Origin: Escherichia phage RCIP0363
Sequence record: PV464739.1
DNA: 64,000 nt
Strand: one strand, 5' to 3'
Part shown: positions 54,240-55,018 of the stretch, in pieces
Position numbering within the stretch: the stretch's first letter is position 1
Layout: the number at the start of each line of letters is the position of its first letter
Notes under the pieces: model-generated
What the model was told of the DNA's origin: nothing
Databases searched by the model: none
The model's input: only the letters and a program-made list of their open reading frames with translations
Position numbers and translations under genes: made by a program

Positions 54240-54565
54240 TTATGATTAATGTTAAGATGGCCGATTGGCCCTTTTTGTTTGCCTGTTGTTTGTGAGTCTT
54301 TATTATCGGATAAAGCGATTGATTTGTGTAAATTTATTAGAGGTTGGTTTGGCGTGAGGATTTTGACGTGATTTTTGTGTCTTAAATATGTGTGCGAATT
54401 TGGAAGAATATTGTACTGTGGTGCTGTGGGATTGGAGAGGGAATCACTAGGTTTTGGGGCGTGTACCGTGGTGTGTGGTCCTGTATGCTGCGCCGTGTCT
54501 GGGATTGCCGCTTGAAATTAAAAAGGAGATATAGTTAGCTGGCTAACCTTACGTATAGAATTTAA

Positions 54566-54852
54566 GCGTATAATGACGTAAGATTTGGACCTATCCGTAG
54601 TTCACTCCACACACTTCTATGGTGCGCCGCGACTGGGTTCAGTGGTACACTCATACGGATGATACGGATGATACGCGTCGCCGCTATACTTTATACAACT
54701 TTGAAAAAAACAATTAACTCCATTTTAAATTAATTTAAATTAATTTTTTTCTACATCCTCATACTTATACTAAACTTATATTTATACGTATTATCCGTAA
54801 GATATAAGTAAAAACAAAGACTTGCGGCAATACGGATGATACGTCATGATAC
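54566..54852. repeat. iteron cluster B: conserved GCGTATAATGACGTA box, 42-bp block homologous to 3122-3165, AT-rich tract, and ATCCGTATC-type units
   Basis: GCGTATAATGACGTA at 54566-54580 (also at 3068-3082). The block TACGGATGATACGGATGATACGCGTCGCCGCTATACTTTATA (54655-54696) matches 3122-3163; further units at 54829-54852. Confidence 0.8.
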
Positions 54853-55018
54853 GCTTCAACCAGCCAGCTGCGGCTAAGTCATTGATTTGCATAACAAGCG
54901 GCGAAAGGGATGGATTTCTTTTATACGTATCAAACAGTACACCACGCACCATGGTCCGATATTCATTCAGCACTATGATTTATGTACTTTTACAGCCAAT
55001 TTGAACATCAATCTGCAC

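Follow-up and report, generated by a model that had tools for sequence, protein, structure and literature searches.

The closest described counterparts of the elements reported here are the replication origins of Staphylococcus aureus pathogenicity islands (SaPIs). SaPI Rep proteins are self-loading initiators whose C-terminal winged helix binds iterons of 5-6 nt located just downstream of rep, and the origin itself consists of an AT-rich centre with at least two iterons on each side in opposed orientation (PMC9371898). Two origins within one phage genome are known from SPP1, where each contains repeats and an AT-rich unwinding element, the two lie ~13 kb apart, both are bound by gp38, and one of them, oriR, interrupts the order of the virion-assembly genes (PMC6316719). 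Here we describe two related non-coding loci in Escherichia phage RCIP0363 (PV464739.1), of which a stretch of 64,000 nt, hereafter the window, was analysed: locus 1, upstream of the prohead protease gene, and locus 2, upstream of the small terminase gene (terS). An earlier note on the window had pointed to the resemblance between them and had proposed a sequence-specific function used twice, with paired origins as one of several options. From sequence comparison we are highly confident that the loci represent copies of one iteron-plus-unwinding element that would be read by one phage protein. We further propose, with a confidence somewhat better than even, that they would act as paired replication origins for a SaPI-Rep-like helicase, one of them doubling as the left genome end. 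Of the options originally listed, paired origins fit best, given the SaPI-type layout, the presence of a SaPI-Rep-like helicase and the precedent of SPP1 oriL/oriR.

The window belongs to a Wifcevirus, an E. coli myovirus distantly related to the Pseudomonas PB1-like phages. When positions 53000-57000 were compared with phage sequences, 28 Escherichia/Shigella Wifcevirus genomes matched at 85-97% identity; members of the genus include FEC19, WFH, WFC, ECML-117 and Bas98-101, with genomes of ~68 kb. The window spans from within the portal gene to just short of the large terminase gene (terL), a WFH coordinate minus 12978 approximates the window coordinate, and the two loci are separated by 16.5 kb around the circle. 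In the literature searched, neither these elements nor any origins of this phage group were described; the most recent Pbunavirus paper found had guessed origins from GC skew alone (PMC12390725).

Both loci follow a common plan, with outer repeats, 9-mers on the + strand, a GCCGC..ATACTTTATA segment, an AT core of ~100 nt, 9-mers on the - strand and outer repeats again (Table 1). The inner 9-mers stand in tandem, two to three per side, starting at 3120 and 3129 (+) and at 3241, 3250 and 3259 (-) in locus 1, and at 54652, 54661 and 54670 (+) and at 54784 and 54793 (-) in locus 2. Since at both loci the inner repeats left of the core are on the + strand and those right of it on the - strand, they face each other across it, and both loci thus have at least two opposed iterons per side of an AT centre, as in a SaPI-type origin. 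The AT cores of the two loci are the least and second least stable 100-mers in 64 kb (mean -138.2 kcal/mol, standard deviation 8.1). The tract of locus 1 is the more AT-rich of the two, with an 80-mer (3159-3238) of 91% A+T. At locus 2, the outer left box and 54840-54859 make up an inverted repeat. The neighbours of locus 1 are, on one side, a small open reading frame (ORF) coming after the head-fibre gene and, on the other, the gene for the DUF2213 prohead protease (3451-4869); locus 2 is preceded by a terminator ending a long + strand array of small genes.

The similarity between the loci is real and goes beyond low-complexity AT sequence; its best-conserved part is the G+C-containing iteron block. 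The 42-nt block that had first drawn attention to the pair is indeed identical at 38 of 42 positions, with its register shifted by one: 3122-3163 pairs with 54654-54695, not with 54655-54696. Over 30 shuffles of both regions, the best 42-mer had 23.9 matches on average and 26 at most, compared with the 38 observed. Pairwise alignment, which had been suggested as a check, extends the homology to ~150 nt, well beyond this block (3120-3266 with 54652-54800, 154 columns, 113 matches, 73%). Two further elements said to be shared were also recovered. One is the box GCGTATAATGACGTA, present exactly at 3068 and 54566 and, inverted and with one mismatch, a third time at 54840-54854. The other is the short unit GATACGGAT, which occurs exactly eight times in the window, seven times in locus 1 and once in locus 2 and nowhere else; allowing up to one mismatch, there are 23 matches in the window vs 10.1 +/- 2.8 expected. 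For the AT-rich tract, the claim held only loosely: the 22-mer TTAAATTAATTTAAATTAATTT occurs exactly at 54725 only, and the two loci have in common its 12-mer AAATTAATTTAA, found also at 3175. More broadly, 9-mers of the form nnTACGnnn number 13 in locus 1 and 16 in locus 2 over a background of 2.2 per 400 nt. The complete WFH genome has iteron clusters at these two loci alone; in the window, an apparent third cluster at 32.55-32.65 kb was rejected as TACG density within the polymerase gene, in unrelated contexts. The GCGTATAATGACGTA box was also considered as a sigma-70 promoter and rejected, as it has a TATAAT but no acceptable -35 element at 16-18 nt in either locus and is unreported by the promoter scan. 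It reads better as two degenerate TACG 9-mers, that is, iterons.

The arrangement extends well outside this phage. We compared five lineages, namely this phage, two metagenomic relatives (A and B, with helicases 75% and 56% identical to that of this phage), Pseudomonas phage LBL3 and Burkholderia phage BcepF1, in each of which gap 1 denotes the region upstream of the prohead protease gene and gap 2 the region between the VapE-like helicase/early-gene array and terS. In line with the comparison across related genomes that had been asked for, both gaps in every lineage contain an AT-rich core with repeats in both orientations. The repeat varies by lineage, yet both gaps of any one genome share it: TACGGAT in the window (9 copies in gap 1 and 5 in gap 2, of 20 in 64 kb), TGATACGT in lineage A (8 and 7, of 17 in the 24 kb available), TTGCGGATA in lineage B (8 and 9, of 18 in the 29 kb available), GGTAATTTGG in the Pbunavirus LBL3 (clusters at 11595-11926 and 57803-58320), and GTAACTAAGGA in BcepF1, where it was found only at 64366-64622 and 20772-20843. 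Because each lineage-specific repeat is common to both gaps, one trans-acting protein would read both sites; and because the repeats have changed in concert, the pair of loci would be ancestral to the group. The proposal that one sequence-specific function is used twice is thus strongly supported, by five lineages each with its own shared repeat. Also kept is the spacing between the first inner repeat on the left and the first on the right, 119-130 nt in the window and the enterobacterial lineages A and B, and in lineage B the two loci share ~150 nt around the core. Across four genomes, 98-100% of the columns of the non-coding locus 1 are invariant, equal to or above the flanking genes, so that this locus, as judged from the alignment, is under strong constraint. 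Members of the WFC clade have a replaced sequence left of the genome-end boundary described below, and the inner left iterons of locus 2 (TACGGATGATACGGAT, TATCCGTA, ACGTCATGATACG) are kept in spite of it. That both regions are AT-rich and non-coding might invite an explanation by chance, low complexity or a recent functionless duplication. The probability of this is negligible, given 38/42 identity vs at most 26/42 in shuffles, loci conserved in 28 genomes, and a two-locus layout with differing repeats in five lineages.

As for the protein that would read the repeats, a SaPI-Rep-like helicase is the most likely candidate. The replication proteins scanned were a VapE/D5-type helicase, a RepB'-type primase (42772..43854, +; Pfam PF16793, 1.6e-36) and a Dda-like helicase; the Bas99 record labels two further genes 'DNA helicase', which lie outside this set. 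The sole PDB sequence match of the 556-aa VapE-like superfamily 3 (SF3) helicase was 7PDS, SaPI1 Rep1 bound to DNA (E = 4e-11). Its AlphaFold model (predicted local distance difference test score 86.6) likewise had 7PDS as the best fold match (E = 2e-16, ~480 aligned columns), followed by NrS-1 and the poxvirus D5/E5 helicases. A winged helix of H-b-H-H-b-b topology is predicted at residues 436-505, so that a Rep-type helicase with a C-terminal winged helix is present, the latter by prediction only. The variable parts of the helicase family are its N- and C-terminal regions. We infer that the helicase, via the predicted winged helix, would load beside the AT core on either side and open the core at either locus, so that one origin would lie beside the replication/terS genes and the other inside the head-gene cluster.

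The likeness to SaPI origins thus comprises the opposed short iterons around an AT centre, the predicted C-terminal winged helix and 7PDS as the closest solved relative. In some lineages only, the position of the element after the helicase gene is similar as well: gap 2 directly follows this gene in LBL3, and a single gene separates the two in lineage B (of 225 aa) and in BcepF1 (a small one). In contrast to the SaPIs, this is a virulent 68-kb myovirus and not a satellite, the element is present twice per genome, the tandem iterons measure 7-10 nt rather than 5-6 nt, one copy holds the genome terminus, and the Wifcevirus helicase gene is 8 kb of small genes away from the element. The helicase gene is equally far from gap 2 in lineage A (7-8 kb of small genes in lineage A and the window), and locus 1 is never near it. 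The intervening array of small + strand ORFs (46834-54239, ~7.5 kb, between the helicase/215-aa gene pair and locus 2) occurs in Wifcevirus and lineage A. Lineage B and LBL3 lack it, their gap 2 directly following the helicase region, and it has the look of an accessory insertion of early genes.

Locus 2 has a second feature, a genome end. The left and right ends of this phage were placed by homology to deposited relatives. Exact terminal repeats are present in WFH (3701 nt), WFC (3784 nt), Ro157lw (3533 nt) and SP13 (3899 nt), and this direct terminal repeat (DTR) starts at AATTAACTCC/ATTTT (AACTCC/ATTTT, the slash marking the boundary) in WFH, WFC and Ro157lw, and within 1 nt of it in SP13. 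The Mansfield record is opened, and ends, at the same base, and the AACTCC/ATTTT motif is also kept in lineage A. The ends of Ro157lw were obtained with PhageTerm (PMC6454146), as were those of Mansfield by a different laboratory (PMC6753283), and WFH and WFC come from a third (PMC6563267). The right DTR boundary, GGGTCTTT/TGGTGCG, is common to WFH, Ro157lw and SP13 and corresponds to 58570/58571 in the window, so that the repeat would be 3849 nt here. These repeats conform to the long DTR (T5-like) class of PhageTerm, being exact, several kb in length, and bounded by a common left position in four genomes and a common right position in three of the four. The left boundary, 54721/54722, lies 26 nt past the 42-nt block, at the left edge of the AT-rich core. 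Based on this homology, we are highly confident that the left terminus of the DTR falls within locus 2, beside terS. With this end at the AT-core edge, 360 nt upstream of terS, locus 2 would also be where virion DNA ends are made. The earlier suggestion that physical genome ends might map to these loci therefore holds for locus 2 only: locus 1 as a second genome end was rejected, as no deposited record begins there and the AACTCC/ATTTT motif is absent, although minor termini may occur at it.

The ORF at 55082-55555 is identified by its sequence profile as the small terminase. The identity came from the PDB profile search alone, which matched the small terminase of the Pbunavirus phage E217 (7UXE); Pfam and PHROGs gave nothing useful on the 157-aa protein, and terS is labelled hypothetical in every Wifcevirus record examined. 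The genome carries terS and terL on opposite sides, an arrangement also reported for E217. In BcepF1 (EF153632.1) terS is unannotated at 20504-20076 on the minus strand (tblastn E = 5e-27), and the small ORFs.058-.060 called on the opposite strand are probably mis-called.

Several observations weigh against the paired-origin interpretation. Cumulative GC skew in the window tracks gene orientation and gives no origin signal; since it mirrors gene orientation only, we ruled it out as an indicator of origins. The gene order helicase, gap 2, terS holds in every lineage, with terS directly right of gap 2 in all five, so that gene adjacency cannot separate the helicase from TerS as reader of the repeats. 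In Wifcevirus the helicase gene is 8 kb from gap 2 and terS is still adjacent. Co-variation leaves the two proteins unseparated as well, because the variable domains of the helicase and the helix-turn-helix residues of TerS both diverge along with the iterons. Finally, a physical end lies inside locus 2, and the order of cut, repeats and terS recalls lambda cosN-cosB-Nu1.

These observations could instead indicate that the iterons are TerS binding sites, locus 2 being a pac/cos-like recognition and cleavage site and locus 1 an uncut auxiliary or regulatory site, which is the main alternative but in our view an unlikely one. P1 pac and lambda cosN-cosB have their cleavage point centrally, between repeats, with terS directly downstream and the DNA end within the element. 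At locus 2, likewise, the left genome end is at the centre (by homology) and terS is immediately to the right; locus 1 has neither a virion end nor an adjacent terS, and its lack of AACTCC/ATTTT would explain why no deposited record starts there. However, P1 pac and lambda cos are single-copy, whereas here the element recurs in the head-gene cluster. A second full copy there would have no obvious role for a terminase, and we know of no precedent for a second full terminase site in a head-gene cluster. The element also persists, unlike P1 pac or lambda cos, in relatives without reported fixed ends: Pbunavirus keeps both loci, and PhageTerm gave no terminus peaks there (PMC12390725). The TerS of E217 reportedly showed no appreciable DNA binding in vitro, although the test DNA may differ (review PMC9611059). 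Moreover, an AT core this extreme, with short iterons facing inward, fits SF3-helicase origins, and a different repeat family offers an alternative candidate for TerS sites. This family, (A/G)ATTTGCACTAT, is a third one, found at 55061-56264 on the + strand only. Its exact form TTGCACTAT has eight copies vs 0.67 expected in the window, all in a single orientation in the left third of the DTR. Several copies lie within genes of the minus strand, in antisense, and two extend over the start codon of terS; lineage A has a comparable array ahead of terS (L023 15140-15220). The TTGCACTAT array may comprise the true sites of TerS or those of another regulator.

The repeats might alternatively be operators of a phage transcription factor that co-regulates two head and packaging operons, that of terS and the protease-scaffold-capsid operon. 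A sigma-70-like promoter (3399-3427 and 55001-55047) stands between each locus and a + strand gene 345-380 nt downstream of it, and in the LBL3 annotation predicted sigma-70 promoters overlap the repeats of both gaps. Nevertheless, the other late operons (terL, portal, tail) have no iterons, ~13-16 sites over 300-400 nt around a ~100-nt AT core go far beyond what an operator needs, no candidate gene for the regulator was identified, and the genome end at locus 2 would be left unexplained. We therefore regard this explanation as very improbable.

Under the paired-origin interpretation, the closest counterpart in layout is SPP1, in which oriL and oriR likewise are two loci with the same repeats and an AT element, one of them by the replication genes, at 13 kb as compared with 16.5 kb here. 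SPP1 oriR falls after the MuF-like gene 7 and before the scaffold/capsid genes, a position that corresponds to that of locus 1. The machinery differs: SPP1 uses gp38, a DnaB-type helicase and a loader, whereas here there are an SF3 helicase of the VapE/D5 type and a primase of the RepB' type, and SPP1 packages from pac by headful, with pac separate from both origins. The resemblance is one of layout only, no search having been aimed at an initiator of the gp38 type, at a loader or at a helicase of the DnaB type. Satellite P4 also has two distant clusters of the same iteron, ori and crr, bound by the C-terminal winged helix of the alpha primase-helicase, and is in this respect similar to the present phage. 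In P4, however, crr is auxiliary and lacks a clear unwinding element, primase and helicase are fused in alpha, and neither site holds a genome end. In T7, the origin-like elements phiOL and phiOR lie beside the direct terminal repeat and are implicated in concatemer processing; in contrast to the iteron arrays described here, they are phage-RNA-polymerase promoters with AT-rich DNA, and the T7 repeat is 160 nt vs 3.8 kb.

How long terminal repeats arise was called unknown by the Ro157lw paper, citing Casjens and Gilcrease (PMC6454146). A more speculative variant, to which we assign a low probability, is that the long DTR is made by replication and not by terminase alone, origin and packaging site being fused into one end-defining element. 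In this scenario, the helicase would load at locus 2 and start rightward synthesis at the AT-core edge, 3.8 kb would be locally duplicated up to the G+T-rich right boundary, and the neighbouring terminase would then cut at the origin edge. Locus 1 would be an SPP1-oriR-like partner switching replication to concatemer mode.

For the phage group as a whole, the analysis provides a pair of precisely placed candidate origins in each genome, together with a candidate for the initiator. The left end of the DTR at the edge of an origin-like unwinding element beside terS gives a handle on the generation of long repeats. For rebooting or engineering these phages, the ends and cis elements must be kept. 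In addition, the annotation is corrected in the Wifcevirus records examined, where the gene is terS and not one for a hypothetical protein. The presence of terS beside locus 2, the wider homology and the conservation outside this phage were not part of the earlier note.

Table 1. Coordinates in the window of the two loci and associated features
Feature	Coordinates	Strand	Basis
Locus 1 box and outer left iterons	3063-3094	.	repeat scans
Locus 1 inner left iterons CTTACGGAT GATACGGAT GATATGCAT	3120-3146	+	repeat scans
Locus 1 AT-rich core	3153-3252	.	least stable 100-mer, -100.8 kcal/mol
Locus 1 inner right iterons, three copies	3241-3267	-	repeat scans
Locus 1 outer right iterons	3296-3340	.	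repeat scans
VapE-like / SaPI-Rep-like SF3 helicase, 556 aa	45164-46834	+	Pfam PF05272, 1.6e-28
G+T-rich tract upstream of locus 2	54270-54520	+	G+T composition
Locus 2 outer left iteron-like 9-mers, including GCGTATAATGACGTA at 54566-54580	54548-54601	.	
Locus 2 inner left iterons, three tandem 9-mers CATACGGAT GATACGGAT GATACGCGT	54652-54678	+	
Locus 2 42-nt block	54654-54695	+	38/42 vs 3122-3163
Locus 2 AT-rich core, putative DNA unwinding element	54686-54785	.	second least stable 100-mer, -103.3 kcal/mol
DTR left end, AACTCC/ATTTTA	54716-54727, cut 54721/54722	+	homology
DTR-homologous segment	54722-58570	+	3849 nt; boundaries of WFH, Ro157lw and SP13 mapped by sequence identity
Locus 2 inner right iterons AATACGTAT, CTTACGGAT, reversed orientation	54783-54801	-	
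Locus 2 outer right iterons AATACGGAT GATACGTCA TGATACGCT, include inverted box	54829-54857	+	
Two overlapping sigma-70-like promoters, TTGAAC/TTGAAT-17-TATAAT, ahead of terS	55001-55047	+	consensus match only
terS, 157-aa product	55082-55555	+	four-orthologue profile vs PDB 7UXE, E 2.6e-78

Other known element types were considered for the region. A plasmid origin or phage-plasmid was ruled out by 0 matches among 72,556 plasmids, and a known RNA family by an Rfam search that gave one sub-threshold chance match. An exact-motif scan of IMG/VR returned already known genomes only.

The strand composition around locus 2 is also unusual. The G+T skew reported earlier for 54400-54520 was reproduced over a longer tract, G+T reaching 70.9% in 54270-54520; at 74.4%, the 121-mer starting at 54273 is the richest in G+T of all in the window (mean 50.1%, standard deviation 4.8). 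The sequence of this tract is unconserved in the WFC clade, LBL3 and lineage B, but its G+T richness is conserved. No exact Chi site (GCTGGTGG) was found at the G+T tracts. The second most G+T-rich 121-mer, 58473-58593 (67.8%), ends at the right DTR boundary. The richest one, at 54273, is located shortly upstream of the left boundary, and both genome-end regions are thus marked by top-strand G+T tracts. In LBL3 and lineage B, the left flank of gap 2 is G+T-rich (61-70%) and the right flank C+A-rich (21-41% G+T). The switch in strand composition centres on the iteron/AT core (LBL3 57745-58660, that is, L022 7745-8660; L026 12600-13300) and is weak in the window.

Some smaller observations concern the genome ends. 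The repeat of WFC (MK373777.1) extends 83 nt past the right boundary of WFH, Ro157lw and SP13, which is either a real difference or an assembly/annotation choice. Position 1 of ECO71P1 (OP172789.1) corresponds to window position 54787, inside the inner right iteron of locus 2 and 65 nt from the usual terminus; this start is probably arbitrary or a repeat-induced contig break. Within the non-coding right part of the DTR (58245-58320) there are two direct repeats GCGTAAGTC(C/G)TTGTTTTATA(T/A)AG, ~50 nt apart. Just outside the right DTR end, AATTTGCAGTACACTA occurs twice, at 58594-58609 and 58691-58706, 97 nt apart, and resembles the TTGCACTAT family plus a GTA insertion.

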